A DNA stretch of 64,000 bases from Alphaproteobacteria bacterium (GTDB lineage: Bacteria; Pseudomonadota; Alphaproteobacteria; SP197). The position numbers and the translations under genes were made by a program. The notes below the pieces were generated by a model that worked only from the letters and a program-made list of their open reading frames with translations, ran no database searches and was not told the origin of the DNA. Location of the stretch: the NCBI GenBank assembly GCA_964291415.2, contig OZ219917.1, positions 736,001 to 800,000 of the forward strand, given 5' to 3'. This document shows, one piece after another, positions 844 through 20,928 of the stretch. Each line of letters starts with the position of its first letter. Positions within the stretch are counted from its first letter, which is position 1.

Positions 844-1071
844 TGCCGCGGTCCGCCGCTGCTGACGGACCATCACGGCGCGAGAGCGTGGTGATACGTG
901 CGTGATGCAGGCACCTCCGGCGGTAGCCGGGACAGGCATGTGGCGTCAGCCGGCGTCCGGAGTGCGCACCTGTTCTGCTGACTGGAGTGTCCGGCTCGCC
1001 GGTTTGGCAAGGCGCGAGCCCCCTGAAGCCGCCGCCGGGGCAATCTTGGCCGGAAGAGGTCGTTCGCCCCG

Positions 1072-1944
1072 TTATCGTGCTGGCCGCGTTCCGGAGATGA
1101 AGCGGTAGGTGAACAAGCCTTGCGACAGTCCCGAAGCGTAGGAGACGGATGCGTCCATCCAGTCCAGCAAGTCCGGATTGGTCTTGCCGAGATGAGGGTT
1201 CAGGAACGACATCGTCAGGTACGTCCGGCGGATTTCCTCTGTCGACGGGATCGCCTCGGCGGAGAGGTCCCGTTCCTCGATGTCCTCGAAGCCCGCTTCT
1301 TCCAGCACCGTGCATGTATCACGCCACGTGCCCATCGGCGCCAGGCGCCAGTTTCGCTCCACGGCCTCGACAAGCGCCCGATGTTCGTCCGGCACCGGTG
1401 CTCTCTTCAGAAAGCCGCCGTCCAGGGCCTGCCAGCGCCCGCCGGGCTTCAACACCCGGTAGACACCCCGGAGATACGCTGGTTTGTCGTACGCATGGCA
1501 GAAGGACTCCTGGTTCAGGACCGCATCGAAGCAGGCGTTGGAAAACGGCAGTTCCATGAAGTCACCGCAGAGAAACTCCACCAGATGGCCGACCCCGCGC
1601 TCTTGCGCGCATCGCGCCGCCAGGGCGACATGGGGCGCGCAGTTCGTCAACCCGGTGACCCGGACGCCATGCGTCTGCGCCAGGGCGATTGCCGTGGCGC
1701 CCGCGCCGCAGCCGGCATCCAGTACATGCCGTCCCGGACCGAGGGGGCATCCTTGGGTCAGAATGTCGTTGGCGCGTTCCAGGCTTTCCCGCCTGGTCCT
1801 CGTACCCGGCCCCCAGAGGCCGCGATGAAGATGGGGCGGCTCCTCGCGTTCTGTCGACAGAAGCCCGGTCAGCGAGGCATACAGTTCGGCAACCGAACCC
1901 TGCGTTCCGGTACTGCCGGACGAATCCGCTCCCTCAGCGTCCAT
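1072..1944 (-). CDS. Class I SAM-dependent methyltransferase (gamma-tocopherol MT/RebM-like)
   Basis: HxHxGLW N-terminal motif, VLDAGCGAG motif I, GDFMELPF, FDAV..ES and RVLKPGG. Confidence 0.9.
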   Translation of the reverse strand: MDAEGADSSGSTGTQGSVAELYASLTGLLSTEREEPPHLHRGLWGPGTRTRRESLERANDILTQGCPLGPGRHVLDAGCGAGATAIALAQTHGVRVTGLTNCAPHVALAARCAQERGVGHLVEFLCGDFMELPFSNACFDAVLNQESFCHAYDKPAYLRGVYRVLKPGGRWQALDGGFLKRAPVPDEHRALVEAVERNWRLAPMGTWRDTCTVLEEAGFEDIEERDLSAEAIPSTEEIRRTYLTMSFLNPHLGKTNPDLLDWMDASVSYASGLSQGLFTYRFISGTRPAR

Positions 1945-2007
1945 TCCGGATCACTCCGGCAGAGGGTTCCCACAACGCGGAATGCTGTCGGGAGCCGTGT
2001 GTTGCCC

Positions 2008-3273
2008 TCAGCTCCATTCGACTGTCAGTTGCTTCAGCCCGCGAAACGTGATTGTCCGGAAAATGTCCGGCGAACCGCCGTCCGCCAGTCTCATGCCGGG
2101 CAGGCGGCTGGTCAGTTCTTCCAGGGCGATCTTCATCTCAAGCCGGGCGAGCTGTGCCCCGAGACAGAAATGCGCGCCATGGCCGAACGAGAGATGGTCC
2201 CGGGCATTCTTGCGCTCGATGTCCATCGTCTCGCCGTCCGGGAAAACGGTCTCGTCGCGGTTGCCGGAGGCGAGCAGCAGCAGGATTGTCGCGCCCGACG
2301 GAATCTGCCGCCCGGCGATCTCGGCGTCGCGCGTGGCGAGGCGGGGGAATGCCAGAAGAGGGGTGCCGAGGCGCAGGATTTCCTCGACCGCGTTGGGGAT
2401 GAGGCCGGTGTCGGCACAAAGGCGCCCCCACACGTTTCCGTCCGCCAGCATGGCCCTGATGCCGTGGGCCAGCGAATGGCTCTGGTTGTCCGCCCCCGCG
2501 GTCTGCAGCAGGAACACGAAGTTGTGGAGATAGTTGTCGGTGAAGAGCGACGGGGTCGCCCGGCGCGTCCGCACGATGTCGCCGAGATAGTTGTCGCCGG
2601 GATTCTCGATAGCGGCCCTGGCCAGCCCGCCGCTGAACGACCACAGCCGGACAACCATTTCCATCAGGGAGACCTGCGCGGCTTCGGTCACGGTCCCCCA
2701 GGTTTCGACCCGCCGCATTCCGCCTGGCCACCTGGCGAGGTCGAACTCCTCGTCGTCGCCGCCAAGAAGGTGGAAGGTCATCCGGGCGGCAGCCGGCTGC
2801 AGGAACCGGGCGATCAGGTCGGCGCGGCCATCCTCGATGAAGCTGTCGATCTGACTCGAAACGATCGCGCGAATTCTCGGCTCGTATTGCGCCACGCTGC
2901 GTGCGGAAAGGCCGTCTGCGAAGATACGCCGGTTGTCACGGTGAGAGGCCGGCTCCTCGTCCGCCAGAGTAGGTTCCAGCCGCACTCCGGCCGAGCGATA
3001 CACTTCCTCTGCCCTGGGGCATAGCGGCACGGGGGGCTGACGCACATTGGCCGAAGAGAAGGTTTCCTGATCCCGGAAGACTGCGCGGATATCGCTGTAC
3101 CGGGCGACCGTCCACCAGCCGGTTTCGGGAACATGCAGAACCGGCGCCTCGGCTCTGGCCCAGGCGAAGAAGCGGTAGGGATCGGCATAGTACTCGGCAT
3201 GCCGCGAACCGTGCGGCGTGCCGGCGTGCGCCGCCAGCATCTCGTCGAACCGAGTCGCATTGGCTTCCGGCAT
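2008..3273 (-). CDS. Cytochrome P450 (CYP116-like heme domain, no fused reductase), copy 1
   Basis: EEILR (ExxR), heme motif HLSFGHGAHFCLG, I-helix AGADNQ. ATG 3273 is preceded by GGAGAAGGAG; the ORF track extends to 3471. Confidence 0.93.
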   Translation of the reverse strand: MPEANATRFDEMLAAHAGTPHGSRHAEYYADPYRFFAWARAEAPVLHVPETGWWTVARYSDIRAVFRDQETFSSANVRQPPVPLCPRAEEVYRSAGVRLEPTLADEEPASHRDNRRIFADGLSARSVAQYEPRIRAIVSSQIDSFIEDGRADLIARFLQPAAARMTFHLLGGDDEEFDLARWPGGMRRVETWGTVTEAAQVSLMEMVVRLWSFSGGLARAAIENPGDNYLGDIVRTRRATPSLFTDNYLHNFVFLLQTAGADNQSHSLAHGIRAMLADGNVWGRLCADTGLIPNAVEEILRLGTPLLAFPRLATRDAEIAGRQIPSGATILLLLASGNRDETVFPDGETMDIERKNARDHLSFGHGAHFCLGAQLARLEMKIALEELTSRLPGMRLADGGSPDIFRTITFRGLKQLTVEWS

Positions 3274-3495
3274 CTCCTTCTCCGCGACAGCGATCCTGCT
3301 CGATCCGTCGAAAACAGTAGCGCGCCAGCCTGGAGACGGACAAGTCTGTCTCCCTGTCCGTCCGGTGTTGAAACTCCTTCCCGGCCGATGGCAGAGCCGT
3401 CCCCGGGCGGGGCGTGTGGTCGATCTGCGAGGTGAGAATTCAGGGGTTCCCACGCCGCGTTCTTGAGCCATTGCACCGCCGCCGCGGAACCAGGG

Positions 3496-4761
3496 TCAAC
3501 TCCAGTCGACCGTCAGGTGCTTCAGTCCGCGGAAACTGAAGGTCCGGAAGACTTCCGGTGGCCTGTCATCCGCCAGCCTCATGTCGGGCAGACGGCGGGT
3601 CAGTTCCTCCAGAATGACCTTCATCTGGAGCCGGGCGAGCGGCGCCCCAAGGCAGTAATGCACGCCATGGCCGAACGTCAGGTGATCCCGTGCGTTCTCC
3701 CGGTCGATGTCCATCGTCCCGCCGTCCGGGAACACCGTCTCGTCGCGGTTGCCCGAAGCGAGGAGCAACAGGACCCGGGCACCAGCCGGAATCCGCCGCC
3801 CGGCGACTTCAACGTCCCGGGTTGCGAGCCGCGGGAACATCAGCGTGGGCGTGCACAGGCGCAGGATCTCTTCGGCCGCGTTGGGGATGAGGCCGGGATC
3901 GGCGCAAAGGCGTGCCCACATGTCACCGTTCGCCAGCATGGCCCGGATGCCGTGGGCAAGCGAGTGGCTCTGGGTGTCCGCCCCCGCCATCTGGAGCGCG
4001 ATCACGACATTGTGGAGATAGTTGTCCGTGAACAGGGACGGGTCCGCCCGGCGCGACCGGACGATATCGCCGAGATAGTTGTCGCCGGGCTCCTCGATGG
4101 CGGCTTCGAGCAACGAGCCGCCGAACGACCACAACCGGACGACCATGTTGACCAGGGAGATTTGAGCTGCCTCGCTCGGGGCGCCCAGGATCTGGACCCT
4201 CGGGATGCCGCCCGGCCAGTCGGCGAGGTCGAAATTCTCGTCGTCACCGCCGAGCAGGTGGAACGTCATCCTGCTCGCGACAGGATGGAGGAACCGGATG
4301 ATGAGGTCCACCCGACCTTCGTCGGCGAGGCCGTCGATCAGTTGCGAAACGATCGCGCGGATCTTTGGTTCGTACTGCTTGACGATGCGCGCGGAGAGAC
4401 CTTTGCCGAAAAGACGCCGGCTGCGGCGGTGGGCGGTCGAATCCTCGTCGATCAGCGCGGGCTCCAGCCGCACACCGGCGGAGCGGTAGATCTCCATCGC
4501 CCTCGGGCAGAGCGGCACGGGGAACTGGCGGACGTTGGCCGACGAGAATGTCTCCGGGTCCCGGAAAACCGCGCGAATGTCGTCAAAGCGGGAGACCGCC
4601 CACGCGTCGAGCTCCGGAATGTGCAGAACGGGCGCTTCGGCCCGGGCCCAGGCGAAGAAGCGGTATGGATCGGCGAAGTACTCGGCATACCGCGAACCGC
4701 GCAGAGTGCCGGCATGCGAGGTGAGCATCTCGTCGAACCGCACCGCGCCTTGTTCGGACAT
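3496..4761 (-). CDS. Cytochrome P450, copy 2 (close paralog of copy 1)
   Basis: EEILR, HLTFGHGVHYCLG, I-helix AGADTQ. Collinear with copy 1 over the full length. ATG 4761 follows GGAG. Confidence 0.93.
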   Translation of the reverse strand: MSEQGAVRFDEMLTSHAGTLRGSRYAEYFADPYRFFAWARAEAPVLHIPELDAWAVSRFDDIRAVFRDPETFSSANVRQFPVPLCPRAMEIYRSAGVRLEPALIDEDSTAHRRSRRLFGKGLSARIVKQYEPKIRAIVSQLIDGLADEGRVDLIIRFLHPVASRMTFHLLGGDDENFDLADWPGGIPRVQILGAPSEAAQISLVNMVVRLWSFGGSLLEAAIEEPGDNYLGDIVRSRRADPSLFTDNYLHNVVIALQMAGADTQSHSLAHGIRAMLANGDMWARLCADPGLIPNAAEEILRLCTPTLMFPRLATRDVEVAGRRIPAGARVLLLLASGNRDETVFPDGGTMDIDRENARDHLTFGHGVHYCLGAPLARLQMKVILEELTRRLPDMRLADDRPPEVFRTFSFRGLKHLTVDWS

Positions 4762-5255
4762 TTGCGTCTCCGCATCAGACTTCGCTGCGCCGTCAGCCGC
4801 CGGGACCGCGCCCCGGGCTGTGATGGAGGCCCCCGGCGACCATCGCGGCATCCGGCGTGCAGGGCCGACTCGTTCAGGTTGCCACGGTAAGCAACTTGAG
4901 GGCGAGAGTGTCGCTTACGGGGTCGGAGGATTCCAGAGTGGAACGGACCGTTCCGGCGGACCTCGTGATTCGCGAGTCATGCTTCGCAGAGAGGGCGTTC
5001 CGTGCCTTCGCCAGGGAGCGGCTGACAGGTCGCTCGGATTGCGGCGCATCTGTGGGTCGCGATGTCCGCGAGGAGACTGCCCTGGTTTCGATGGCGCGGG
5101 CGGGGCGGAACACGTTCGCACCCGCAGGCGGCTGGAGATCAGGGAGGTGCAGGCGAACGTCGTGCAGCAGCCGGTGGTGAAGTGGTTTTCAAATGTCATC
5201 GCTTCTGGCAGGGTGACGGCCTTGCTGTTGCACATGTCCTCGAAGGAGAACAACG

Positions 5256-5534
5256 ATGACCAAGGCGATCGAAACCAGCCAAGGGGCGATGACGGCATCC
5301 CAGGTCCGCGAACAACTCCTCGCGCAGGCGGCCGAGAGCGAAGAGTTTCGCGCGCGGTTGCTTGCAGACCCTCGGGCAACCCTGAGGGAAGACTACGGCA
5401 TCGTGTTGCCGGAGAACCTGAAAGTGTGCGTCCACGAGGAGGATGCGACAACGGCGCACCTGGTGTTGCCGCCTTCGAAGAGGCTTACCGACGCCGAACT
5501 GGAAGCAGCATCAGGCAGCGGCGGCTATTACTGA
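5256..5534 (+). CDS. NHLP (nitrile hydratase leader) RiPP precursor; predicted core GGYY
   Basis: Leader hallmarks 'A..seEFRARLLADPRA.L...GI.LP..LKV.VHEE......LVLP' and the C39 recognition helix LTDAELEAASGS. RBS GAAGGAG at 5242-5248. Lies upstream of the NHLM transporters. Confidence 0.9.
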   Translation: MTKAIETSQGAMTASQVREQLLAQAAESEEFRARLLADPRATLREDYGIVLPENLKVCVHEEDATTAHLVLPPSKRLTDAELEAASGSGGYY

Positions 5535-5603
5535 TTTCGCCTCCGGGTCCTGTCGTCGCCTGCGTGTCCGCGCAGCGACGTAGCCGGTGCGTCCCTTGTC
5601 CGG

Positions 5604-6671
5604 TTGACCGGAATGACCGGAGGCCGGCTCCCCTCAGGCCGCGGCAAGTCATCTCACGATAACGATGCGGCGAGTTTCGCCGATGTCATCGAGCTGGTCC
5701 GCTGTGTGTTGCCCGCAGGGCTCATCGACGGCCGCGGCTGGGAGCAGCTGGCGGAACGGGCCGGACGGTTGCCGATGTCGGCGGCTGACGCCATGTTCGG
5801 CTTCGAGTGCCGCCTTGATGATTCGGAAGCTTCGGCCGATTTGCTGCTCTCCGTTCTCAAGGACACGCCATTTGTCGAGGTGCTCGTCCAGGAGGGCGCG
5901 GTCGCCGGTTCGAGAGCAGCGGCGCTGGCTCGATTCCTGACCGAAGTGCGGCAGCCGGATTCCTCACTGGGAGCGGCCGTCGGCCAGGTGGCGCTGGAGT
6001 ACGACATCGTCGGAATGAAGGACTTTCCGGCTCCGGGCATTTTCTTTTGCAGCGCTGACGAGAGCGGATACACCGATCCCGGATTGTTGGCGTCAGCGGG
6101 CGCGCTGGCCGCGGGCTGGAACGAGAATGCGTCCGAGCGTCGCGGGATCGAGCGCATCCTGGCCGCCCTGCCACGAGGTGCCGCGGTGCGTTGGGCTGGC
6201 GTGTTCCCGGATCGGAAGATACGGGCGGTGCGGCTGCTGGTTCGCGCCCTGGGCGACGCCCGGCCGGCGTTCCTGGAGCAGATGGGCTGGTCGGGCGATG
6301 CGGACGCCATCGAGGGAATTGTCTCGGCGTTCCGTTCCCGGGACGTGGAGAATCCCGTTCTCGCCCTCGATGTGGCCGGAGACCGCGTTTCGACGGGGCT
6401 TGGTCTGGAGCTGTCCCGGCAGGGGCGCAGCAGTGGCTGGCGTGAGGCGCTCGACATGATGACGCGCCGCGGCTGGTGCCTGCCCGAGAAAGCGGTCGCG
6501 CTGGGCTGCGTCTCCGGTAGCGAGCGGATTTACTCGTCTGGCGGAGCGTGGGACCTTCATTGTGGACTCCACCATGTCAAGCTCGCTGTTTCCGCAGGCG
6601 GTCCTCGGTTCAAGAACTATGCCGCGCGGGCGAAAGGCTATATTACCTGCGTTCTTCGCTCCGTGCCGTGA
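5604..6671 (+). CDS. Conserved hypothetical protein, candidate RiPP maturase A (possible ABBA prenyltransferase-like barrel)
   Basis: Directly follows the precursor. Shares FGFExRL, EYD, PGxF, GLEL, GxCLPEK, HVK and AKxY blocks with 12668-13711. The fold assignment is inference. Confidence 0.6.
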   Translation: MTGMTGGRLPSGRGKSSHDNDAASFADVIELVRCVLPAGLIDGRGWEQLAERAGRLPMSAADAMFGFECRLDDSEASADLLLSVLKDTPFVEVLVQEGAVAGSRAAALARFLTEVRQPDSSLGAAVGQVALEYDIVGMKDFPAPGIFFCSADESGYTDPGLLASAGALAAGWNENASERRGIERILAALPRGAAVRWAGVFPDRKIRAVRLLVRALGDARPAFLEQMGWSGDADAIEGIVSAFRSRDVENPVLALDVAGDRVSTGLGLELSRQGRSSGWREALDMMTRRGWCLPEKAVALGCVSGSERIYSSGGAWDLHCGLHHVKLAVSAGGPRFKNYAARAKGYITCVLRSVP

Positions 6672-6686
6672 TCGAGGGAGAGGTCC

Positions 6687-7484
6687 TTGGCTGAACTAGG
6701 CGAAAGCCAGTTTCGTGAGAGCGCGTTCGCCCGCAACGCAGAGCCCGAGCCGCTGGACGACCGAGCGCAACTGACTGCTCCGCATGAGTGGGTTGTGCTG
6801 GCGTGCCTGGGACTGGTCGCGGCGGCCATCATTGCCTGGGGCGTATTCGGCAGCGTGGAGCGAACAGTGCGGTCAGACGGCGTGCTGGTCCTGTCCGGCG
6901 ATCGGCATACCGTGCTGTCCGAAGAGTCCGGTGTGGTAGTCGAAGTCCTGACGCCGGCGGGGAATCGGGTGGATTCGGGTCAGCCGATCGTCAGGATCGC
7001 CGCTTCCGGTCCCGAACGGACAGAGGGCGACGTCACGAGTCCCGGCGATGGGGTGATTGCAACGCTCCATGTCGCACGCGGCCGGACGGTCCTGGCCGGT
7101 ACCCCGGTCGCCGAGGTGGTGTCCGGAGGCGCCCACGTGCTCGACGCCGTCGCTTTCGTGCCGCGCCAGGAGTCGTGGCGGCTCGCCCCCGGCATGGCCG
7201 GCCGCGTGACCGTGGAATCGTCCGGATCGGTCGGATCCTTCAGGGTCAACCTCACCACTGTCGGGACGCGTGCCGCAGAACCTCCGGATTGGCTTGTGCG
7301 GATGCAGCCGAGTGTCGCAGCCGGGGGCCGGGGTCATCTCCTCCGGCTCACGTTTTCGGACCCTGTGCTTCCCGCGAGCTCGACCGGGAACGCCCTGCCA
7401 GGAAGCCTTGAGGACGGGACACCCTGCCGGATCGAGATTGTCCTTGAGCGCACATCTCCATTCGGCCTGCTGCTCCGGCTCTAG
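6687..7484 (+). CDS. NHLM-system HlyD-like membrane fusion protein (short form)
   Basis: N-terminal 'FRESA......PEPLD' plus TM helix 'WGVFGSV', lipoyl half-motifs (GNRVDSGQPI / VTSPGDGVI) and C-terminal 'SPFGLLL'. TTG start after GGAGAGG. Confidence 0.85.
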   Translation: MAELGESQFRESAFARNAEPEPLDDRAQLTAPHEWVVLACLGLVAAAIIAWGVFGSVERTVRSDGVLVLSGDRHTVLSEESGVVVEVLTPAGNRVDSGQPIVRIAASGPERTEGDVTSPGDGVIATLHVARGRTVLAGTPVAEVVSGGAHVLDAVAFVPRQESWRLAPGMAGRVTVESSGSVGSFRVNLTTVGTRAAEPPDWLVRMQPSVAAGGRGHLLRLTFSDPVLPASSTGNALPGSLEDGTPCRIEIVLERTSPFGLLLRL

Positions 7485-7520
7485 GAACGCGCCGCGGGAA
7501 ACGGAGACGCAACCCGGACA

Positions 7521-9728
7521 ATGTCTGCTTACGCCCATGGCCTGAGAGAACGGTGGCGGCATCTGTTCACGGGCCGCGTGCGCACACCTCTTGTGCTTCA
7601 GATTGAGGCGACCGAATGCGGAGCAGCCTGTCTGGCTTCGGTTCTCCGCCATTTCGGATGCTGGGTGTCGCTGGAGGAGATGCGCGAGGCGTGCGCCGTC
7701 AGCCGCGATGGCTGTTCGGCCGCCGACATCGCGCGCGCGGCGCGGCAGTACGGACTTGAAACAACGGGCTGGAAGCAGGAGATCGGAGACCTTCCCGGCC
7801 TCTCTCTTCCGGCCATTTTGTTCTGGGAATTCCGTCATTTCGTTGTTCTGGAGGGTATCGGGAAGGGACGATACCTCATCAACGATCCGGGCCGTGGCCG
7901 GCGCGTGATCGACGAAGACGGCTTCGATCGCGCCTTTACCGGTGTGGCACTGGAACTCAAGCCCAGCGGGTCGTTTTGCCGCAAGGCGCCGCCACCGGGT
8001 GTGCTGCGCCGGCTGTGGCCCTGGATAAGCGGCTTCAGATCGTCACTCCTGTTCTCGCTGCTGGCCGGGTTGCTGCTTGCGATTCCGGGAATTGCGGCTC
8101 CGGTGCTGCTTGGACTCTTCGTCGATGCTGTTCTCAGAGGCGGGCAGCACGACTGGGGCGGCACATTGATCGGCGCGATGACCGCTGCCGGCATTGCCGT
8201 CTACATCCTCACCTGGCTTCGCGAGAGGTCGTTGCGGCGTCTGGCGGTCGCCGTCGCCGTCCGTCAGGCGGACCGCTTCGTCGGCCGCCTGTTGAGCAGG
8301 TCGGCCCAGTTCTTCGCCCGGCGCATGGCGGGAGATCTGCTGTCGCGGGCGCAGTCGATCGAGCAGGTCGTCGCCATCGGCGTCGTTCAGCTCGTGGGCG
8401 TGGCCGCTGATCTGGCAATGAGTCTCGCCTTCCTGTCGCTGATGGTCGTTTACGATGCCGGACTCGCGGCTGTGGTGATCTTCATCGCGGCGGCGTGCGC
8501 CGCCGCGGCGCGTTTCACCAGCCGCTACCGGACCGATGAAAGCCATGGCCTGCAGCGCGAACAGGGTCTGTGGATCGGCGTCGGCCTCGCCGGACTGCGC
8601 AACGTCGAGGCCCTGCGCGCGACCGCGTCCGAGAACGATTTCTTCTCCCGCTGGAGCGGCCATCAGGCACGCGAGCTGAACGCCCGGCAGAGGTTCGAGG
8701 AACTCGGTCACGTCACGGAAGCCGTCCCGGTCCTGTTCACCGCGCTTGCCGGAACAGCAGTGCTCGGGATTGGCGGCTGGCAGATGATTCACGCCGAGAT
8801 GACGCTGGGCAGCCTCATGGCGTTCTACATGCTGGCCTGGGGATTCCTCCAACCGATTGGCCGGTTCGTGCAGTTCGCGGAACTGTTGCGCACGCTGGAC
8901 GCGGAGTTGGCACGGCTCGAGGAGGTGCTCGACGCTCCGAGCTCCCGAAACGACGCGGCATCGACCATCGCGCCTCGGATTGCCACTGTTGACGGGAGGC
9001 TGCGGCTGCGCGGACACCTCGAGATGCGCAACGTCACTTTCGGATTCAGGCGCTACCGGCCGCCGTTGATCGAAGGATTCAACCTCGTGATCGAACCCGG
9101 TCAGCGAATTGCCATCGTCGGGCCGAGTGGATCGGGCAAGTCCACCCTGTCGCTGCTGGCGGCGGGGATCCACCGGCCCTGGTCCGGCGAAATCCTGTTC
9201 GACGGCATTCGCCGCGACGAGGTCCCGCGCGACGTCCTCAACGATTCGATTTCGGTCGTGTCCCAGGATACGGCGCTCATCGAGGGCTCATTGCGCGACA
9301 ATCTCACCCTGTGGAATCCGACCGTCCCCGATTCGCAGCTGATCGCCGCGGCCCGGGACGCGGCGATCCATGACGACATCATGGCCAGAGTCCACGGTTA
9401 CGACGCCGAGGTCGAGGAAGGAGGGCTCAATTTCAGCGGCGGCCAGCGCCAGCGGCTGGAAATCGCCCGCGCGCTGGTTCACGGTCCCTCGTTGCTGATT
9501 CTCGACGAGGCCACGGCAGCGCTCGATGCGATCACCGAGAACCGGATCGACGACGCATTGCGCCGTCGCGGCTGCTCCTGCCTGATTGTCGCCCACCGCC
9601 TGAGCACGATCCGTGACAGCGACCGGATCATCGTGCTCGACCATGGACGTGTGGTTCAGGACGGTACCCACGACGAACTGATCGCCTCCGAGGACGGTCT
9701 CTATGCGGAGCTGGTTCATGCCTCCTGA
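7521..9728 (+). CDS. NHLM bacteriocin ABC transporter, C39 peptidase/permease/ATPase
   Basis: C39 triad QxxxxECGAACL / HFVV / NDP, TM domain, Walker A GPSGSGKST, FSGGQRQR and LILDEAT. Confidence 0.95.
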   Translation: MSAYAHGLRERWRHLFTGRVRTPLVLQIEATECGAACLASVLRHFGCWVSLEEMREACAVSRDGCSAADIARAARQYGLETTGWKQEIGDLPGLSLPAILFWEFRHFVVLEGIGKGRYLINDPGRGRRVIDEDGFDRAFTGVALELKPSGSFCRKAPPPGVLRRLWPWISGFRSSLLFSLLAGLLLAIPGIAAPVLLGLFVDAVLRGGQHDWGGTLIGAMTAAGIAVYILTWLRERSLRRLAVAVAVRQADRFVGRLLSRSAQFFARRMAGDLLSRAQSIEQVVAIGVVQLVGVAADLAMSLAFLSLMVVYDAGLAAVVIFIAAACAAAARFTSRYRTDESHGLQREQGLWIGVGLAGLRNVEALRATASENDFFSRWSGHQARELNARQRFEELGHVTEAVPVLFTALAGTAVLGIGGWQMIHAEMTLGSLMAFYMLAWGFLQPIGRFVQFAELLRTLDAELARLEEVLDAPSSRNDAASTIAPRIATVDGRLRLRGHLEMRNVTFGFRRYRPPLIEGFNLVIEPGQRIAIVGPSGSGKSTLSLLAAGIHRPWSGEILFDGIRRDEVPRDVLNDSISVVSQDTALIEGSLRDNLTLWNPTVPDSQLIAAARDAAIHDDIMARVHGYDAEVEEGGLNFSGGQRQRLEIARALVHGPSLLILDEATAALDAITENRIDDALRRRGCSCLIVAHRLSTIRDSDRIIVLDHGRVVQDGTHDELIASEDGLYAELVHAS

Positions 9729-12651
9729 CCGCAGGGACAGACCGCAGCCGGATGGTCTCCCAGCCGGCGGCCCGGATCGCCGGTCCCTCGCTGAAATGGC
9801 CATGGCGCTGGGTGAGTCGGTCGTTGCCGGCAACCGTTTCCTGCCGCTCGACGATCCCGCAAGCCTGTGGTTTGTCGAGAGCGGCGCCCTCGACGTCTTC
9901 CTGGTCGGAGTCAGTGACGGACTGGACGAAGCGCCCTTTCGCCATGTGCTGAGGCTGGAGGCCGGCGGCCTCGCCTTTGGCGCCACCAGCAACGAGGAGC
10001 TGCGCCTTGCGGCCAAGGGCCTGCCGGACACGGTCCTGCGGCGCATACCAGCAGCCGGTCTCATCGCGGGCGCTGCCGGCGATGCCGATGGTTGGCAGCG
10101 CATCGTGGCGGAGGACGCCGACAACTGGGTCGCCGGCATCATCGCCGCAGTCGCCGCCGGGGTCGAGGTGCGCCCGCGTTCCGACATGCTGCTGTGCGAA
10201 GGGACTGTGACCGGGGCCAGCGGCATCCTGACGAGCAACGAAGGCGTGTTCTGGATCGAGGGCGCGCCGGCGCTGTTCTTCGGCACCGAGGATCCGATGG
10301 AAGGAGAACTCGTGGCGGTCGCGCCGGACGGTTGGGTGGCGCTGCACGGCCGCGCCGACATCACGGTCCTGTCTTCGCGGACGCTCGGGGCCGAAGCGCT
10401 GCTGTCCCGGGCCCTGCCGGGCTTCCACCGCCTGGCGTTCGCCGCTCAGATGTTCAATCGCCGGATGCTGCTGGCTGATCAGGCCGGTCTTCAGGTCGAA
10501 CGTACGATATGGCGCCGGCGCGACGAGAACCAAGCGCGGAGGAACCTGTTCACGCTTCACGCGTCGACCCGCCCCGCCGCCTCCGGCGGCGGGGCTCTGA
10601 TGGCAGCGCTGTGCGCAGTCGGACGCCATGAGGGAATTGCCATCCGGGAGCCTGGCAACCGCTCGGATGAGCCGCCGGTGCTGGCCGACCTGTTGCACGC
10701 ATCGGGAGTTCGGGCACGGCGGATACGCCTGGTGTCCGGGGAACGCTGGTGGCGCGGCGACAGCGGCGCCATTCTGGCCTTCCGGCGCGACAGCGGCGAG
10801 CCTGTTGCTCTCCTGCCCGGCGTCATGGGGCGTTACCGCCTCTTCGACCCGGCAACCGCTGAGTCGTCGCTGGTCGGACGAAGTGACACAGCCACTCTTG
10901 CCCCGGATGGTTATGTCCTCTACCGGCCGCTGCCCGATGACCGGCCCCTTGGCACGTGGACCCTGCTGGCGGGTGCCGCCGGCCGGTTCGGCGCAGATCT
11001 CGCCCGTGTCATTGCTGCCGGCCTGGCGGCTGGTGTCCTGGCCCTGGCGCCGGCGGCTGGCATCGGCGTGCTGCTCGACCGCGTGGTTCCCTCGGGCGAC
11101 GGCGGTGCGCTCCTGCAGCTCACGCTGGTGCTGGTCCTACTCGCGCTCGCGGCGGCGCTGACCCATGTGCTGCGCGGCACGGCGGTCATGCGTATCGAGG
11201 GTCGGCTCGCCGCGCGCGCGACTGCCGCCCTGTGGGACCGTCTGCTGCGGCTGCAAACCAGTTTCTACCGCCAGTACAGTTCCGGCGAGATATCCATGAG
11301 GGCGCTGGCTTTCCAGACGCTGCGCGACCGGCTCTCCGGCGCGACCGGGACCGCGGTGCTGTCCCTCCTGTTTCTCATTCCTTCGATCATCCTCGTGTTC
11401 CTGTGCGACGCCGCACTCGGCTGGGCAACTCTGGGCATCGGCATTGCCGCGCTCGCCGTAACGGTCGCATTCGGGGTAGCGCAGATGGCCGCGCAGCGCC
11501 TCCGGTTTCGCGAGGAGCGCGTGCTCGCCGGCCATCTCCTGCAGCTCATCGACTGCGTTCGCAAGCTGCAGGCCGCTGGAGCGGAAGGGTCGGCCCGGGC
11601 GTCCTGGGCGCGGCGCTACAGGAAACAGAAACAGGCCGAGATTCGCGTCGGCATCCTGAACGAGCACCTCAAGGCGTTCAGTGCCGCGGTGCCCCTGGTG
11701 GCGGCGGCGACGCTTCTTGCCGTTGCCGCCACGCGGGAAGACGGCATGCTCGATGTCGGCGAATTCCTCGTCGCCTATGTCGCCTCGATGATGTTCTACG
11801 CCTCCATCGTCGCGCTTGGCGCGGCGTTCGAGGCCATTGCCTCGTTCGGACCGGTCTGTGAACAGGTCCTGCCCATTCTCGCAGGCACACCCGACTCCCG
11901 GCCGAAGCCAGGCCCGCCACCCGTGCTCGGCGGCGCGCTTCGCTTCGAATCCGTGAGCTTCCGCTATGGTGACGACGGCCCGCTGATTCTCGATCAGGTC
12001 TCCATCGAGGCCCAGCCGGGTGAATTCGTCGCTGTTGTCGGCGAGTCCGGCGCCGGCAAGAGCACGCTCATTCGCCTCGCGCTCGGCCTCGAGATGCCCA
12101 CAAGTGGCGCGGTCTATTACGACGAGCGCGATCTTGCCCATCTCGATCCGGTTGTGGTGCGCCGGCAGGTCGGCGCGGTCCTCCAGGATTCCGGCACGCA
12201 AATCGGCACCGTTCTCAACAACATCATCAGCCTGGACCAGTCCCTGACCGCAGACGACGCCTGGCGCGCCGCACGCAAGGCAACGGTTGACCGCGACATC
12301 GCGGCAATGCCGATGCGGATGCACACCAGCATGGGGGAACGCGCGGTCGTCGTGTCCGGTGGGCAGAGTCAGCGAATCCGCATCGCTCAGGCGCTGGTCC
12401 GCGACCCACGCATCGTCTTGCTCGACGAGGCCACCAACTGGCTGGACCGTCGGAACCAGGCGGCCCTGATGAAGGGAATTCGCGACTCGACCGCCACGAG
12501 GGTGGTGGTCGCCCACCGAATATCGACGATCCGCGAAGCGCACCGAATCTATGTGCTCAAGGCCGGAAGAGTTGTTCAGGTCGGGCGCTTCGATGAACTT
12601 GCCAGCACGGACGGCCCGTTCCGCGAACTGGTGAGCCGGCAGATGTCGTGA
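9718..12651 (+). CDS. NHLM bacteriocin ABC transporter permease/ATPase (second, peptidase-less subunit)
   Basis: N-terminal cNMP-like domain (WFVESGALDVF), 'WWRGDSGAILAF', GESGAGKST, VSGGQSQR and LLDEAT. Overlaps the preceding gene's stop. Confidence 0.93.
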   Translation: MPPDRRDRPQPDGLPAGGPDRRSLAEMAMALGESVVAGNRFLPLDDPASLWFVESGALDVFLVGVSDGLDEAPFRHVLRLEAGGLAFGATSNEELRLAAKGLPDTVLRRIPAAGLIAGAAGDADGWQRIVAEDADNWVAGIIAAVAAGVEVRPRSDMLLCEGTVTGASGILTSNEGVFWIEGAPALFFGTEDPMEGELVAVAPDGWVALHGRADITVLSSRTLGAEALLSRALPGFHRLAFAAQMFNRRMLLADQAGLQVERTIWRRRDENQARRNLFTLHASTRPAASGGGALMAALCAVGRHEGIAIREPGNRSDEPPVLADLLHASGVRARRIRLVSGERWWRGDSGAILAFRRDSGEPVALLPGVMGRYRLFDPATAESSLVGRSDTATLAPDGYVLYRPLPDDRPLGTWTLLAGAAGRFGADLARVIAAGLAAGVLALAPAAGIGVLLDRVVPSGDGGALLQLTLVLVLLALAAALTHVLRGTAVMRIEGRLAARATAALWDRLLRLQTSFYRQYSSGEISMRALAFQTLRDRLSGATGTAVLSLLFLIPSIILVFLCDAALGWATLGIGIAALAVTVAFGVAQMAAQRLRFREERVLAGHLLQLIDCVRKLQAAGAEGSARASWARRYRKQKQAEIRVGILNEHLKAFSAAVPLVAAATLLAVAATREDGMLDVGEFLVAYVASMMFYASIVALGAAFEAIASFGPVCEQVLPILAGTPDSRPKPGPPPVLGGALRFESVSFRYGDDGPLILDQVSIEAQPGEFVAVVGESGAGKSTLIRLALGLEMPTSGAVYYDERDLAHLDPVVVRRQVGAVLQDSGTQIGTVLNNIISLDQSLTADDAWRAARKATVDRDIAAMPMRMHTSMGERAVVVSGGQSQRIRIAQALVRDPRIVLLDEATNWLDRRNQAALMKGIRDSTATRVVVAHRISTIREAHRIYVLKAGRVVQVGRFDELASTDGPFRELVSRQMS

Positions 12652-12667
12652 GGCCCGCGCAGGGCCT

Positions 12668-13711
12668 TCATAGCGAGAGGATGTCGGATCCGATGGACTC
12701 GAAGGGAAGATAACCGGCGGCCGGATAGGCCTTGGCCTCGATCGCGTTCTCACCGTCTCGCGCCTCGAAGGACACCTTGACGTGAGCGAGGGAGGTCAAC
12801 AGGCCAAACGTCTTGCCTCCACAGAACACCAGTTCCCGTCCCGGCCAGGCCATCAGCCCGTCCATCTTCTCCGGAAGGCACAGTCCGCGTTCGCACAACC
12901 GGGCGAGGAAGGCCCCCCACGGACCTGCGCCCGAGTGGGTCAACGTCCCCGTCTTGCCCTGAAACAGCTCCAGCCCGACGCGCGGCAGGATGGCTTGCGC
13001 GGTCACGTCGAACGAGATCCGGAGCGCGTGGAACATCCCTTCGAACCGGGAAAGAAAGTCGGCAACTGCGTCGGCGGGCCCGTTCCAACCCAGGTCCTCC
13101 AGGACCGGCAATACGCGCGCCGGCTCCATCGACCGGCTGATGACCCTGTACGCTCGTGTCGGCCGGCCCGGCATGATCCCGAGATACTCGACCGCCGCGC
13201 CGTCCGCCGACATCCTGTCGAACGTCCGGCCGAGCACCCGGCGCTCCAGCCGCCAGCCGACCACGCCCGCGAGCCATTCCGCCACCGTGTCCATGGCATC
13301 GGTTCCGGTCCGGATCTTCACGAACAGTCCGGGAGGCGTGCCGTGCGGACCACCCGCTGCATCATACTCGACCGCAAGGAGTCCGAACCCGGACGCGCCG
13401 TCCCCGATCGCGGCAGGACCGGTGCCGAACTCGCCTTCCCATTCGCCGTGCCGCATGTAGTGTTCTGCAAGCGCCCCGGTTCGTGGCAGCATGACAAAGA
13501 TGTCCGCGTTGGCTGCCGTCTCGCCAAGCCGAAGCTCGAAACCGAAACCGGCGCCGGGCTCGACGGGCAGTCCCCGAACCGTCTCGTGCAGGCGGTGCCA
13601 GCCGACAGCGTCGATCAGCGCCGGGGATACCGCGCCCGAGAGGGCGTCGAGGATTGCGCCGAACGCGAAAGCGGCGTCTTCCGCCGACAGATCCGCCCGT
13701 GCTTTCCCCAT
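12668..13711 (-). CDS. Conserved hypothetical protein, candidate RiPP maturase B (paralog of 5604-6671)
   Basis: LIDxxGW, FGFELRL, VEYD, PPGLF, VGLEL, GLCLPEK, LAHVK and EAKAY occur in the same order as in the paralog. Confidence 0.6.
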   Translation of the reverse strand: MGKARADLSAEDAAFAFGAILDALSGAVSPALIDAVGWHRLHETVRGLPVEPGAGFGFELRLGETAANADIFVMLPRTGALAEHYMRHGEWEGEFGTGPAAIGDGASGFGLLAVEYDAAGGPHGTPPGLFVKIRTGTDAMDTVAEWLAGVVGWRLERRVLGRTFDRMSADGAAVEYLGIMPGRPTRAYRVISRSMEPARVLPVLEDLGWNGPADAVADFLSRFEGMFHALRISFDVTAQAILPRVGLELFQGKTGTLTHSGAGPWGAFLARLCERGLCLPEKMDGLMAWPGRELVFCGGKTFGLLTSLAHVKVSFEARDGENAIEAKAYPAAGYLPFESIGSDILSL

Positions 13712-13882
13712 GGGCGGCACGGTTCAGGTCGAGGTGGCGGGTGTCAAGCCCGTCCGGCCCCAATGCCCCATCCCTATGGCGAACAGACGTTGTCCGGCTG
13801 ACCGGTCCTCCGGGGCCGCCTTGCTCGCTGTTCGGGCGCACATTGGACGCCAACGGACTCGACGCAACCCGGCCCCTTGCCT

Positions 13883-14863
13883 TCAGGGGATGAGGACCGT
13901 GGATCCGGTTGTGTTCCTCTCCTCCATCAATTCGTGGGCCTTTGCGATGTCGGCGAGGTCGAAGGTCTGGCCGATGGTGACCTTCACCTTTCCGGTTCCC
14001 ACCATGTCGAAGACGCGCCGGGCGCAGGCTTCGAGCTCGAGGCGCGTCGCCGTGTAGTCGTCGAGCGTCGGCCGGGTGACGAAGATCGATCCCCTGGCCG
14101 CGAGCAGCAGCATGCGGAAGGGCTCCGGTTCGCCGGAGGACTGGCCGAAGGACACCAGGGTGCCGCGGGGGGCGAGGCATGCGAGACTGGATTCGAAACT
14201 CGTCCGGCCAATCGAATCGAACACCACCGGAACACCCCTGCCGGCCGTTTCGGCGCTCACCACCTCTTCTAGCGTGTCCTGGCCCCATATGACAGGGACG
14301 TGACAGCCGTTCATGCGCGCGAGGCGCGCCTTGGCGTCGCTGGAGACGGTGCCGATCACACGGGCGCCAAGCGCTCTCGCCCACTGGCAGGCAATGAGAC
14401 CGACACCGCCTGCCGCCGCATGGAAGACGATGGTCTGGCCGCGGCGCACGGGGACGCATCGCTCCAGCAGGTACTCGACCGTCATCGCCTTGGTCATCAT
14501 GGCGGCGGCTATGGTCTCCTCCATGTCCGCGGGCAGCCGCACGACCCGGGAGGCGTCGGCGTTCATGGCCTCGGCACAGTTCCCCGGGCCCGAGAGAACG
14601 GCGACGCGGTCGCCTTCGGCGAGGTGCTGGACGCCGGCGCCGAGCGCCTCCACCACGCCTGCCGACTCCGAGCCGGGCGTGACGGGAAGATCGACGGGAT
14701 AGAGTCCCCTGCGTTCGTAGATGTCGTAGAAGTTGAGAGCGATCGCGGTATTGCGCACCCGCACCTCGCCGGCGCCCGGAGGATCAAGGACCGTGTCGGC
14801 GAGTTCCAGAACCTGAGGGCCGCCACAACGCGCAAGGCGCACCGCCCTTATGGTTGCGCTCAC
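13883..14863 (-). CDS. qor: NADPH:quinone oxidoreductase (zeta-crystallin/MDR family), copy 2
   Basis: AIALNFYDIYERRGLY, HAAAGGVG, VSFGQSSG and TTGSTVL. The GTG start overlaps the upstream TGA. Confidence 0.88.
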   Translation of the reverse strand: MSATIRAVRLARCGGPQVLELADTVLDPPGAGEVRVRNTAIALNFYDIYERRGLYPVDLPVTPGSESAGVVEALGAGVQHLAEGDRVAVLSGPGNCAEAMNADASRVVRLPADMEETIAAAMMTKAMTVEYLLERCVPVRRGQTIVFHAAAGGVGLIACQWARALGARVIGTVSSDAKARLARMNGCHVPVIWGQDTLEEVVSAETAGRGVPVVFDSIGRTSFESSLACLAPRGTLVSFGQSSGEPEPFRMLLLAARGSIFVTRPTLDDYTATRLELEACARRVFDMVGTGKVKVTIGQTFDLADIAKAHELMEERNTTGSTVLIP

Positions 14864-15831
14864 GGGAGGAGAACCGTCGAACCCGTCGTTCGACGGCCTT
14901 CGAGATCGCGATGGGCTCGCTCGACGTCGTCCAGACGATAGGTCTGGTTGACCTCGATACGCACCTTGCCCGAGTCGACCATGGAGAAGAGGCGCTGTGC
15001 CGAAAGGTCGAGTTCCTCGCGGCTGGCAATGTAGTGGGCGAGGCCGGGCCGCGTGTAGTAGAGCGAGCCGCCGGCGGCAAGCCGCGCCGGATTGAAGCTC
15101 TCGACCGCGCCTGACGACTGACCGAAGGAGACCAGGGTGCCGCGAGACGCCAGCACCTCGAGCGACGCATCGAAGGTGTCCCTGCCGATCGAATCGTAGA
15201 CGACCGGAACACCCTTGCCGCCGGTGATGTCCATCACCCTTTCGACGATGTCCTCGCTGGACGTCACGATCGGATGGTGGCATCCGTGGGCGGCGGCGAG
15301 AGCCGCCTTTTCCGCGGTCGACACGGTGCCGATCACCTGGGCGCCCAGCGCCCGGGCCCACTGGCAGGCGATGAGACCGACGCCGCCTGCCGCGGCGTGA
15401 AAGAGAATGGTCTGTCCTTCCTGAACGGCGAATGTCCGCATGAGCAGGTACTCCACGGTCATGCCCTTCAGCATCATGGCGGCGGCGGTCTCGTCCGAGA
15501 CGCCGTCGGGGATCTTGACCAGCCGGTCCGCCGGCATGATGCGCTCGCCGGCGTAGGCCCCGGCAGTCATCGGGTAAGCGACCCTGTCGCCGACGCCGGG
15601 ATCCGTGACGCCGGAACCAACCGCCTCGACGACCCCGGCGGCCTCCATGCCCAGGGTCGCCGGCAGGGCGAGGGGATAGAGGCCCGAACGCTGATAGGTG
15701 TCGATGAAGTTGAGGCCGATCGCGGTCTGGCGGATCAGCACCTCGCCCGCCCCGGGTCGACCGGCATCGACCGTCTCGAGAGTCAGGACGTCGGGGCCAC
15801 CGGTCCTGTGGATACGCACGGCACGTGTCAT
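14860..15831 (-). CDS. qor: NADPH:quinone oxidoreductase, copy 1
   Basis: AIGLNFIDTYQRSGLY, HAAAGGVGLIACQWA and TTGSTVLLP. Confidence 0.92.
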   Translation of the reverse strand: MTRAVRIHRTGGPDVLTLETVDAGRPGAGEVLIRQTAIGLNFIDTYQRSGLYPLALPATLGMEAAGVVEAVGSGVTDPGVGDRVAYPMTAGAYAGERIMPADRLVKIPDGVSDETAAAMMLKGMTVEYLLMRTFAVQEGQTILFHAAAGGVGLIACQWARALGAQVIGTVSTAEKAALAAAHGCHHPIVTSSEDIVERVMDITGGKGVPVVYDSIGRDTFDASLEVLASRGTLVSFGQSSGAVESFNPARLAAGGSLYYTRPGLAHYIASREELDLSAQRLFSMVDSGKVRIEVNQTYRLDDVERAHRDLEGRRTTGSTVLLP

Positions 15832-15876
15832 GGGTGTCTCCTTCAATCCCCGGATGACCTCCGGGAGGTGGTGGCG

Positions 15877-16869
15877 TCAGTGCACGGAATCGCGGACCAG
15901 CGGACAGGTGGAGCAGTGGATGCCGCCACCGTTGAGATAGACCTTGTCGTAGTCGATCTCGATGATCTCGATGTTCATCGAGGCGAGAGTGTCGGCTGTC
16001 CGGTTGGAGATGCCGCGCGGCATGACGACACGGCCGGGCCGGACCGCCAGGCAGTTGATGATGGCGTGGCTGTCCTGCGCCGTGATCTCGACGGTGCGGA
16101 TGCCGAGTTCCTTCAGTTTCTCGAGAAAGGCAAAGGGAAGCATGTCGGGATCGATGATGGCGACGTCGACGTCGATCATCGTCATGGCGCCGTCGATGTG
16201 GATCGAATAGCCGGTGAGGTCGACACGCAGCAGTTCGACACCCTGCCAGGCGAGCACTTCCTCGAGCTGGCGGGCGCCCTCCTCGTTGACGCAGATGGAC
16301 CGGCCGATGACGGCTGTGCGATGATTGAGCCAGGCGAAGCTGCCGCCTTCCACCATGCCGGTGCCGTGGATCGTGCGCAGGACCGGCATGCCAAGGCCGG
16401 CGATCGTCTTCGTGACGTGAGCCTCCTCGCCACGCCGGATCGAGCGCGCCAGGCGGCAGATCACGCTGCCCCCCTTGATGGCAATCGACGAATCGCGCGT
16501 GTAGATGGACTTCAGCCCGTCGGGTTCGATGCTGTCCAGAAAGACCACCTCGACACCCTCGCCCTGCAGCGTGCGGACCAGGCCGTCGTGCTGGGCGCGG
16601 AACTCGTCCCAGTCGGGAACCGTGTCGCTCTGGAAGTACCAGCCCTTTTCGAGGTCTCCGAATGAACCGATCTCCTCGATCCTCCGGTTGCGGTCAACGA
16701 TCTCCATCTCGGTGCCGGGACGGTGCATGAGGCAGACCCGCAGGGCGCCGACGTCGTTGTCGCATCCCCATTGCCTGCCCCACACGGAGGTCTGCCCGGC
16801 CTCGCTCTCGAAGGCAGGCTCCGGGTGCGAGCCGAAGAGCTTGATGGTCTGACCGTAGATGCTCGTCAT
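15877..16869 (-). CDS. Amidinotransferase/DDAH/arginine deiminase family hydrolase
   Basis: YTRDS, RRGEE, VEGGS, HID and terminal GGGIHCSTCPLVRD (catalytic Cys). Confidence 0.9.
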   Translation of the reverse strand: MTSIYGQTIKLFGSHPEPAFESEAGQTSVWGRQWGCDNDVGALRVCLMHRPGTEMEIVDRNRRIEEIGSFGDLEKGWYFQSDTVPDWDEFRAQHDGLVRTLQGEGVEVVFLDSIEPDGLKSIYTRDSSIAIKGGSVICRLARSIRRGEEAHVTKTIAGLGMPVLRTIHGTGMVEGGSFAWLNHRTAVIGRSICVNEEGARQLEEVLAWQGVELLRVDLTGYSIHIDGAMTMIDVDVAIIDPDMLPFAFLEKLKELGIRTVEITAQDSHAIINCLAVRPGRVVMPRGISNRTADTLASMNIEIIEIDYDKVYLNGGGIHCSTCPLVRDSVH

Positions 16870-17064
16870 GGTGCTGGTCCGGCTGTCCTCAGAGTGTGCC
16901 GTCTTTCTCACCCGTCGACAGGCACCGGGTCAAGTGTCGTCAGACCGCAGGTGCGTCGGGAATGAAACCGCATTCCGGCGGCGGCACGACAAATGGAAGT
17001 TGCCGAGGTGTCCCGTTCTCTGGAATGATCCCCCTCGATCAGGTGACAAGGGAGCAGGTCCGAC

Positions 17065-17931: not shown

Positions 17932-18404
17932 GTCTTCAACATGTCACGACAACGGTGAACGGCGATGCGGCGGAGTTCCTGTGCGAGGCGACGGAAACCC
18001 TGCTCGATGCCCTGCGCGATCGCCTCGGTCTCACCGGATCGAAGGAAGGGTGCGCATCGGGTGACTGCGGCGCCTGTTCGGTGATGCTCGACGGCCGCCT
18101 CGTGTGTTCCTGCCTGGTGCTGGCGGCAGAGGCGGACGGCGGCGAGGTCGAGACCATCGAAGGCATGGCCGGAACCGGGGAACTCCACCCGCTGCAGACG
18201 AAGTTCCTCGAACTCGGGGCGCTGCAGTGCGGAATCTGCACTCCGGGCTTCCTCGTTGCCGCGAAGGCGTTGCTGGACGAGAATCCCGATCCCGACGAGA
18301 CCGAGGTGCGCTACTGGCTCGCCGGCAACCTGTGCCGCTGCACGGGCTACGACAAGATCATTCGCGCGGTCCTGGAGACCGCCGCCGACCTGAGGGAAGA
18401 GTGA
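17928..18404 (+). CDS. Xanthine dehydrogenase family 2x[2Fe-2S] subunit
   Basis: GCASGDCGAC..C, QCGICTPG and GNLCRCTGY. Confidence 0.95.
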   Translation: MSLQHVTTTVNGDAAEFLCEATETLLDALRDRLGLTGSKEGCASGDCGACSVMLDGRLVCSCLVLAAEADGGEVETIEGMAGTGELHPLQTKFLELGALQCGICTPGFLVAAKALLDENPDPDETEVRYWLAGNLCRCTGYDKIIRAVLETAADLREE

Positions 18405-18407
18405 GCC

Positions 18408-20926: not shown

Positions 20927-20928
20927 GC

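Follow-up and report, generated by a model that had tools for sequence, protein, structure and literature searches.

Very small peptides of ribosomal origin are made by several described systems, and we focus here on how one bacterial locus compares with the closest of them. The locus lies in a 64,000-nucleotide stretch, hereafter the window, from an Alphaproteobacteria bacterium (assembly GCA_964291415.2, contig OZ219917.1, positions 736,001 to 800,000 of the forward strand), and its precursor gene at 5256-5534 encodes a protein with a nitrile hydratase-like leader peptide (NHLP) that ends in two tyrosines. It is probable, in our judgement, that this gene and its neighbours form a proteusin-type (NHLP-leader) pathway for a peptide made on the ribosome and modified after translation (RiPP), in which the folded leader would serve as a handle and nothing but the C-terminal Tyr-Tyr is conserved as cargo.

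First of all, the cittilins of Myxococcus are made from the precursor CitA, with core YIYY, by the P450 CitB and the methyltransferase CitC (PMC10124130). The present cluster resembles them in its predicted very small, Tyr-rich ribosomal product and in P450 and methyltransferase tailoring. CitA, on the other hand, is a 27-residue peptide without an NHLP leader, its core is set free by an unlinked prolyl endopeptidase, and the system has neither ABBA genes nor a C39 exporter. Second, the srp proteusins of sponge microbiomes, with core LCCCW, share with it an NHLP precursor, a very short core with an aromatic end and an occurrence in many symbiont phyla (10.1101/2023.06.09.544420); srp chemistry, however, consists of azol(in)e formation and Trp bromination, whereas here there are P450s, a methyltransferase and a YY core. 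Third, MppC is an ABBA prenyltransferase that acts on a lanthipeptide with a Nif11 leader and needs a long structured leader and an L(X)4L motif (PMC12715784). Two proteins of the cluster, unkA and unkB, have the ABBA fold of MppC, PagF and LimF, which act on aromatic side chains of ribosomal peptides, but they lack detectable sequence similarity to these enzymes, occur as two paralogs per cluster beside a two-residue core, and have an activity that is predicted. Fourth, the C-terminal Trp of PalX, an NHLP-type precursor of Paenibacillus, is prenylated by PalQ in a reaction that the leader enhances (PMC10853753). The conserved C-terminal aromatic residue on an NHLP-type precursor is common to both systems; the Paenibacillus system differs in the isoprene-synthase fold of PalQ, in an eight-residue core and in a three-gene cluster without P450, methyltransferase or C39 exporter.

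A cargo of two or three residues is not peculiar to this locus, so a dipeptide-sized RiPP product has precedent. The cargo of mycofactocin is a C-terminal Val-Tyr. Biarylitides are cross-linked by a P450 on a five-residue precursor, called the 'smallest reported precursor peptide' (PMC12951456). Unlike mycofactocin, a radical-SAM system, and the biarylitides, with their leaderless pentapeptide, the present precursor has an 88-residue leader and is accompanied by ABBA-fold enzymes and a double-glycine exporter. Finally, CYP121 couples the rings of cyclo-Tyr-Tyr in mycocyclosin formation. Its substrate also presents two adjacent tyrosines, but the P450s of the window fall outside the family associated with cyclodipeptide synthases (CDPS), being nearest to CYP116B, and the cluster has no cyclodipeptide synthase gene. 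The combination of an 88-residue leader, a conserved core of two residues, P450s and an ABBA pair differs from all of these systems. The literature searched held no NHLP precursor with a YY core and no NHLP, P450 and ABBA genes together; supplements and the original srp paper lay outside its scope, and the ABBA family may have been named earlier. Two RiPP P450 reviews mention neither NHLP nor proteusin nor nitrile hydratase. One preprint (10.64898/2026.08.03.742642) was considered and set aside, as its available text treats halogenase and adenylation clusters, not a YY cluster.

The precursor and its family

5244-5248, + strand: Shine-Dalgarno sequence AGGAG, 7 nt upstream of the precursor ATG, read from the sequence
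5256-5534, + strand: NHLP-leader precursor of 92 aa, with ATG at 5256 and stop TGA at 5532-5534, from open reading frame (ORF) translation and TIGR03793

The precursor scores 61.7 bits against NCBIfam TIGR03793, the NHLP leader family (cut-off 50.9), of which it is thus a member, and 30.9 bits against Pfam NHase_alpha (cut-off 27.2), and its family profile matches the solved NHLP leader structure 8tb1 (E 2.4e-10). The C-terminus reads ELEAASGSGGYY / RLTDAELEAASGSGGYY, directly before the TGA, with Gly87 encoded at 5514-5516, Ser88 at 5517-5519 and Y91-Y92 at 5526-5531. In the stretch L77-T-D-A-E-L82-E-A-A-S-G87-S88, leucines stand at -12 and -7 counted from Ser88, as in a double-glycine-type site, and the predicted cut, G87-S88|GGYY, would divide the protein into an 88-residue leader (residues 1-88) and a four-residue core (5520-5531). 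A preliminary description of the gene had proposed this leader, this core and a cut after G-S in the same register, and the residue count bears it out.

When 5.8 billion proteins were searched for homologs, 79 of 101 candidates proved to be hits, and C-termini were tallied for the query and its 62 closest hits (n = 63; the hits are of 80-117 aa and 63-95% identical to the query). The last two residues are YY in 57, WY in 4, FW in 1 and CY in 1. In 62 of the 63 the L(-12)/L(-7) register falls exactly on a G-[AGS] pair (GA 46, GS 10, GG 6), with AG in the one remaining, and counted in that register the predicted core is exactly two residues long in 42: the commoner cores are YY (40), SYY (5), GYY (5), GGYY (2), WY (2) and GWY (2), and GSGSYY, QFW, IYY, DGPYY, AYY, GGMYY and MCY occur once each. 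The linker preceding YY, Gly-Gly in the window, comprises zero to four small residues in the family and differs by insertions and deletions among homologs, while YY stays constant. The usual core of the family is thus two residues long; the window's Gly-Gly belongs to a set of short linkers that vary, and what selection maintains is the terminal aromatic-Tyr pair. A cut at GG|YY had been put forward as an alternative; in homologs ending in ..GAIYY, ..GADGPYY and ..GGGGMYY, YY is not immediately preceded by a pair of the double-glycine type, and G-S|GGYY is therefore favoured as the primary cut, a register that agrees with the family's dominant G-A|YY site.

Is the short core simply what is left of an ordinary NHLP bacteriocin gene after a strain-specific truncation or a sequencing error? 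Distant NHLP relatives (P0066-P0079) do carry cores of 7-15 residues or longer after GG, but 62 independent database homologs stop at the same place as the window's gene, and the YY end is common to nearly all of them. A locus scan, with one genome per species, gave 79 loci (denoted by L numbers below), almost all of them in metagenome-assembled genomes (MAGs). In the window and 12 of these loci whose C-terminus is aromatic and conserved, the stop codon is TGA in 11 and TAA in 2 (L003, L005), and the frame beyond it shows no conservation, so neither read-through nor TGA recoding need be invoked. The same letters are found over the ORF in contigs from two public runs of two studies, and one of these runs may be where the window itself comes from. 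A contig of run X1, 2047 nt long, spans 4205-6251 with 0 differences from the window, and a contig of run X2 spans 3400-6397 with 2 differences (3505, 6377), none inside the precursor ORF. The preliminary description had named long cores in homologs, strain-specific truncation or sequencing error as what would overturn it, and had pointed to the homologs and to the TGA as the places to look; since stop and YY are conserved across the family, the long-core expectation fails. Family tally, stop codons and run contigs together refute truncation or error, and we put its chance as good as nil.

The cluster and its exporter

The genes around the precursor are as follows.

1072-1944, - strand: class I S-adenosylmethionine (SAM) methyltransferase, 290 aa (Pfam Methyltransf_11, 76.5 bits)
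2008-3273, - strand: cytochrome P450 'a'; ORF to 3471, likely start Met at 3273 (Pfam p450)
3496-4761, - strand: cytochrome P450 'b'; ORF to 4851, likely start Met at 4761 (Pfam p450)
5604-6671, + strand: ABBA (PT-barrel) fold protein unkA, 355 aa; no family match (AlphaFold2, Foldseek)
6687-7484, + strand: HlyD-type adaptor, short form, 265 aa (Pfam HlyD_3; TIGR03794 78.7 bits, cut-off 156.2)
7521-9728, + strand: NHLP export ABC transporter with N-terminal C39 peptidase domain (TIGR03796, Peptidase_C39)
9703-12651, + strand: second NHLP export ABC subunit, ABC2, 982 aa (TIGR03797 669.6 bits, cut-off 709.4)
12668-13720, - strand: ABBA-fold paralog unkB, 350 aa; no family match (alignment with unkA)

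The exporter at 7521-9728 scores 860.7 bits against TIGR03796 (cut-off 853.3) and 115.3 bits against Peptidase_C39 and is thus of the peptidase-bearing ABC type; its translation contains the stretches QIEATEC, HFVVL and NDP, which we take to be the C39 catalytic motifs, and judged by its letters the C39 domain looks intact. The HlyD adaptor is about 40 residues shorter than its orthologs in L003, L005, L007, L010 and L011, and L001 has the short form also. The cluster contains no YcaO, halogenase or cyclodipeptide synthase gene.

The exporter bears on a reading in which the leader is kept, so that the product would be the whole NHLP protein of about 90 residues, with a lipidated or oxidised Tyr-Tyr end, either exported intact or intracellular. 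Such a product would resemble C-terminally prenylated proteins. The NHLP leader has a rigid tertiary structure (PMC12426817); here, too, it is expected to be a folded domain, given the family profile's match to 8tb1, it is strongly conserved (mean column identity 74%), and a two-residue core is extreme. The G-[AGS] pair, on the other hand, holds its register in all but one family member, the exporter belongs to the TIGR03796 type, which carries a peptidase, and contains the Cys, His and Asp stretches, and related NHLP systems are leader-cleaved (PMC10853753). We thus consider retention of the leader very unlikely and continue with the reading in which it is removed.

The ABBA-fold paralogs

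The AlphaFold2 model of unkA, built on a 45-member family alignment, has a pLDDT of 90.5 and a pTM of 0.88; the protein's database twin begins 3 residues later. In a Foldseek comparison with the PDB, all matches listed are ABBA aromatic prenyltransferases (best E 2.7e-06, prob 1.00; 98 matches at E <= 0.001), which assigns unkA to the PT-barrel fold. Among the matches listed are EpzP, PagF, TleC, AmbP1, AnaPT, LimF, IptA, CdpNPT, PirF, PatF and NphB-type enzymes, of which PagF, LimF, PirF and PatF are peptide prenyltransferases, PagF and LimF ranking with the best matches, and an ESM Atlas lead for unkA goes to Trp_DMAT and PTase_Orf2 clusters. By sequence, neither unkA nor unkB matches any Pfam or NCBIfam family, curated prenyltransferase families included; their profile finds no prenyltransferase among PDB sequences, where the only matches are chance-level ones to L,D-transpeptidases, and their database homologs are named 'hypothetical protein' only.

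unkB is 29% identical to unkA. E68, D79, E132, D134, H324 and K326 are invariant in the 45-member alignment and R204, R207, K296, K344 and Y346 near-invariant, and both proteins keep them; in unkB every column checked, 10 invariant and 5 near-invariant, is retained. Both are for this reason taken as putatively active enzymes. These residues lie on or beside barrel strands of the unkA model, and R204, R207, K296, K326, K344, H324 and Y346 are candidates for holding a prenyl diphosphate. Predictions of an unkA-precursor complex scored 0.20, 0.43 and 0.16 in separate runs and speak neither for nor against binding.

At E <= 0.001 the family counts 4246 cluster representatives, of which 1582 remain at E <= 1e-30; a few representatives, 679-718 aa long, are fusions in tandem in which two stretches match. 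It is present in 45 of the 79 NHLP loci; unkA orthologs adjoin YY precursors in 9 loci, and unkB orthologs occur in 9 loci and in one more where the gene is cut by a contig end. ABBA-family genes also adjoin short-core, Trp-bearing NHLP precursors, the LCCCW (srp) type included. Precursors ending in W or Y number 38 of 82 with an ABBA-family gene within 8 kb versus 18 of 69 without one, and the median core is 7 residues with such a gene nearby versus 14 without; because of related sequences, contig-end cuts and an ad hoc core-calling pattern, this association with aromatic ends is weak.

Several further loci carry genes of this family. The window's own genome has, outside the window, an srp-type NHLP precursor with core LCCCW (G000:C1:1075572-1080816; L081, L082, L085), with an ABBA-family gene about 140 bp away on the opposite strand (G000:C1:1079410-1080453, L085); a neighbouring protein of 442 aa has at its N-terminus an NHLP-like domain, its sole NCBIfam match (43.9 bits, sub-threshold). 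L014 (9155-14162), L015 (9043-14391), L017 and L033 have NHLP precursor genes in arrays, as many as 12 together, with short, varied and mostly Trp-ended cores (HHTGLWG, GSHKGYYW, RGYRGNINW), and each array has one ABBA-family gene and an NHLP exporter. L003 (10001-18274), where the precursor ends in FW, has an unkB-type ABBA gene and an exporter within 10 kb, and no unkA, P450 or methyltransferase there; this single case would fit one enzyme per prenylatable residue.

The P450s and the methyltransferase

P450 'a' and P450 'b' score 72.7 and 71.2 bits against Pfam p450 and are 74% identical. P450 'a' has the Cys-ligand motif FGHGAHFCLG and the I-helix motif AGADN, where P450 'b' has AGADT; the Cys-ligand loop FxxGxHxCxG is found in all 14 cluster P450s aligned, which places them in the P450 superfamily. 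Alignments with homologs begin at residue 62-67 of the 'a' ORF, and Met 3273 is therefore its likely start. Among solved structures, CYP116B-type heme domains come closest (E 2e-83 for P450 'b'), and the best 60 do not include CYP121. Against TIGR04538, the CDPS-associated, CYP121-like family, the two proteins reach 149.9 and 141.7 bits (cut-off 500), and against the ApyO model NF050147 60.2 and 47.2 bits (cut-off 525), in both cases far from membership. The CYP121 parallel drawn in the preliminary description thus finds no sequence support and serves as an analogy only, and Tyr-Tyr coupling by these P450s stays a conjecture. CYP116-type enzymes have hydroxylase and dealkylase activities.

AGADN, with Asn at the usual place of the I-helix Thr, occurs in 12 of the 14 cluster P450s (window, L001, L004-L009, L011, L012), and AGADT or AGSDT is confined to P450 'b' of the window and that of L001. 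Phenol-coupling OxyB also has Asn at this position, which we treat as a lead towards phenol coupling, not as a test of it. The methyltransferase (METHYLTRANSFERASE) is a generic class I enzyme, whose nearest solved structures include 4pne, MitM, 3bus, TleD (5gm1) and BezA.

These genes could also be combined differently. In that case the ABBA-fold proteins would not be prenyltransferases and would instead carry out another aromatic reaction or leader docking, leaving an un-lipidated, P450-coupled and methylated Tyr-Tyr of the cittilin or mycocyclosin kind. The absence of a sequence-level link to any prenyltransferase family, the invariant acidic residues and the I-helix Asn of most cluster P450s, with its likeness to OxyB, would agree with this, as would the fact that P450 and methyltransferase with a Tyr-rich core form the cittilin gene set (PMC10124130). 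The fold matches listed, however, are all prenyltransferases, the Arg, Lys and Tyr residues that are conserved would suit a diphosphate site, and the family also accompanies Trp-bearing cores without a P450. A product without prenyl groups is unlikely in our view, and prenyl transfer by the ABBA pair is retained in what follows.

Locus conservation and distribution

YY precursors occur in 11 of the loci scanned (L001, L004-L013); the precursor of L003 has the end FW, and L002 holds a relic. In L001, L005, L007 and L011 the gene order is preserved in full, namely methyltransferase, P450(s), precursor, unkA, HlyD, C39-ABC, ABC2, unkB; it is found with rearrangements or contig breaks in L004, L006, L008, L009 and L012. 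P450 orthologs are present in 9 of the 79 loci, namely in 9 of the 11 YY loci and in 0 of the 68 others, and methyltransferase orthologs (at least 56% identity) in 7 of the 79, all of them YY loci. YY loci have one precursor each, versus 10-15 in other NHLP loci.

The limits of the cluster are given by a same-genus relative. L002 (8755-19271; the same sequence is in L086) is syntenic with the window flanks 113-848 and 13873-22736 at 86-90% DNA identity and lacks 849-5186 and 5547-13872, i.e. every enzyme and exporter gene; its precursor copy is decayed but open, with 80% nucleotide identity, and ends in GSGSHN. From this natural deletion pair we place the cluster at about 849-13872. A PPOX-type FMN flavoprotein (136-843; TIGR04025, 230.6 bits) borders it and, being kept in the relative without the cluster, is a flank gene outside it.

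At E <= 1e-50, neither 18 further genomes of the genus (91-100% complete) nor 12 genomes of the class gave a match to the cluster P450, and a close precursor homolog is present in 1 of 22 other same-genus genomes, that copy being the L002-type relic. The nearest intact copy of the cluster, at 72-88% protein identity, is L001, in a MAG labelled Acidobacteria, and the YY loci carry the labels Acidobacteria, Alphaproteobacteria, Rhodospirillales, Paracoccaceae, Spirochaetia and Pseudomonadales (Gammaproteobacteria). We read the cluster as a probable accessory unit moving between phyla; the several labelled phyla and the same-genus genomes searched without it point to horizontal spread of a product important in the sponge habitat. 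The GC profile is flat (63-70%) and gives no compositional sign of transfer.

Near-identical pieces of the cluster occur in runs labelled as sponge metagenomes, at 4234-4451 and 7228-7484 in X3 and at 5283-5454 in X6; X3, X4 and X5 hold only small shares, and gaps in cover elsewhere are not evidence of absence. X6 is a sponge metatranscriptome; within 3400-7500 it has just two contigs, both short and both in the precursor ORF (window 5240-5454), one identical to the window and one with 10 differences, which thus derives from a relative. NHLP precursor genes have been described as the most transcribed genes of such clusters (10.1101/2023.06.09.544420), and the X6 contigs fit this description, short of proof.

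The proposed pathway

In the pathway that we propose, the leader would hold the precursor on the enzymes while the two ABBA paralogs prenylate aromatic side chains, plausibly one enzyme per tyrosine; we regard prenyl transfer as fairly probable. The P450s would oxidise Tyr-Tyr. Phenolic coupling is a tentative assignment for them, ring hydroxylation followed by O-methylation a possible but rather doubtful one, and oxidation of the prenyl group more doubtful still. The methyltransferase would then cap a hydroxyl, amine or carboxyl group. Finally, the C39 domain of the exporter would cut after Gly87-Ser88 during export, releasing a modified GGYY of <1 kDa; in most relatives the released product would be a modified YY dipeptide. 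We would class the system as a minimal-core proteusin, with a precursor that belongs to the NHLP family and that, judged from its sequence, would work as proteusin precursors do.

The most likely product is a very small modified peptide, not a bacteriocin, as the preliminary description had held; the single precursor per YY locus and the apparently intact C39 domain agree with this. Its identification of the product as a plain dityrosine derivative does not stand in the same way, since, with two ABBA-fold genes and a methyltransferase in the cluster, a product that is prenylated and methylated is no less likely. The likely prenylation, the conserved ABBA pair and the methyltransferase were overlooked there. 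The function of the product is probably that of a diffusible signal or a defence compound in the sponge microbiome.

A number of points weigh against this pathway. First, the TM-scores of the unkA fold matches are moderate (0.40-0.57), 0 of the 45 ABBA-family members match Pfam prenyltransferase families at E <= 1, and the four invariant acidic residues are not a known feature of ABBA enzymes. The ABBA fold can also be inactive, as in PatF. Second, the nearest solved P450 relatives, being CYP116-type, are not coupling enzymes. Third, L010 and L013, both YY loci, have no P450 or methyltransferase within 10 kb, and no methyltransferase was seen in L006 and L012; the P450 and methyltransferase steps are thus not obligatory. 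Fourth, ABC2 and the HlyD adaptor are clearly related to TIGR03797 and TIGR03794, yet score below the equivalog cut-offs, the adaptor because it is only 265 aa long, and C39 cleavage with only 2-4 residues beyond the site is a predicted step. Finally, the transcription evidence consists of only two short contigs from one RNA library.

A more far-reaching version of the pathway, which we consider quite unlikely, combines a leader-templated ribosomal route to a prenylated, P450-coupled Tyr-Tyr, horizontally shared by sponge symbionts of several phyla, with a large leader-guided ABBA family that also serves the ubiquitous srp clusters. In this version the YY-core relatives could self-close to a cyclo(Tyr-Tyr) diketopiperazine: C-terminal methyl-esterification followed by leader removal would let the freed YY dipeptide close, as could apply to the 42 family members with a two-residue core. 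If true, this would give alkaloids of the mycocyclosin or herquline kind a ribosomal origin, as an alternative to cyclodipeptide synthases.

Conclusions

A core of two residues carried by a leader of 88 marks the lower bound for a RiPP, and the proposed pathway would show the NHLP leader as a scaffold for building, in effect, a small molecule. The cluster joins an NHLP leader, P450s and an ABBA-fold pair in a way not described in the literature searched. Furthermore, the ABBA family, for which Pfam and NCBIfam hold no model, stands near many short-core NHLP precursors, including those of the LCCCW (srp) type that are highly expressed in sponges, and its reaction, once found, would therefore bear on many cryptic clusters.

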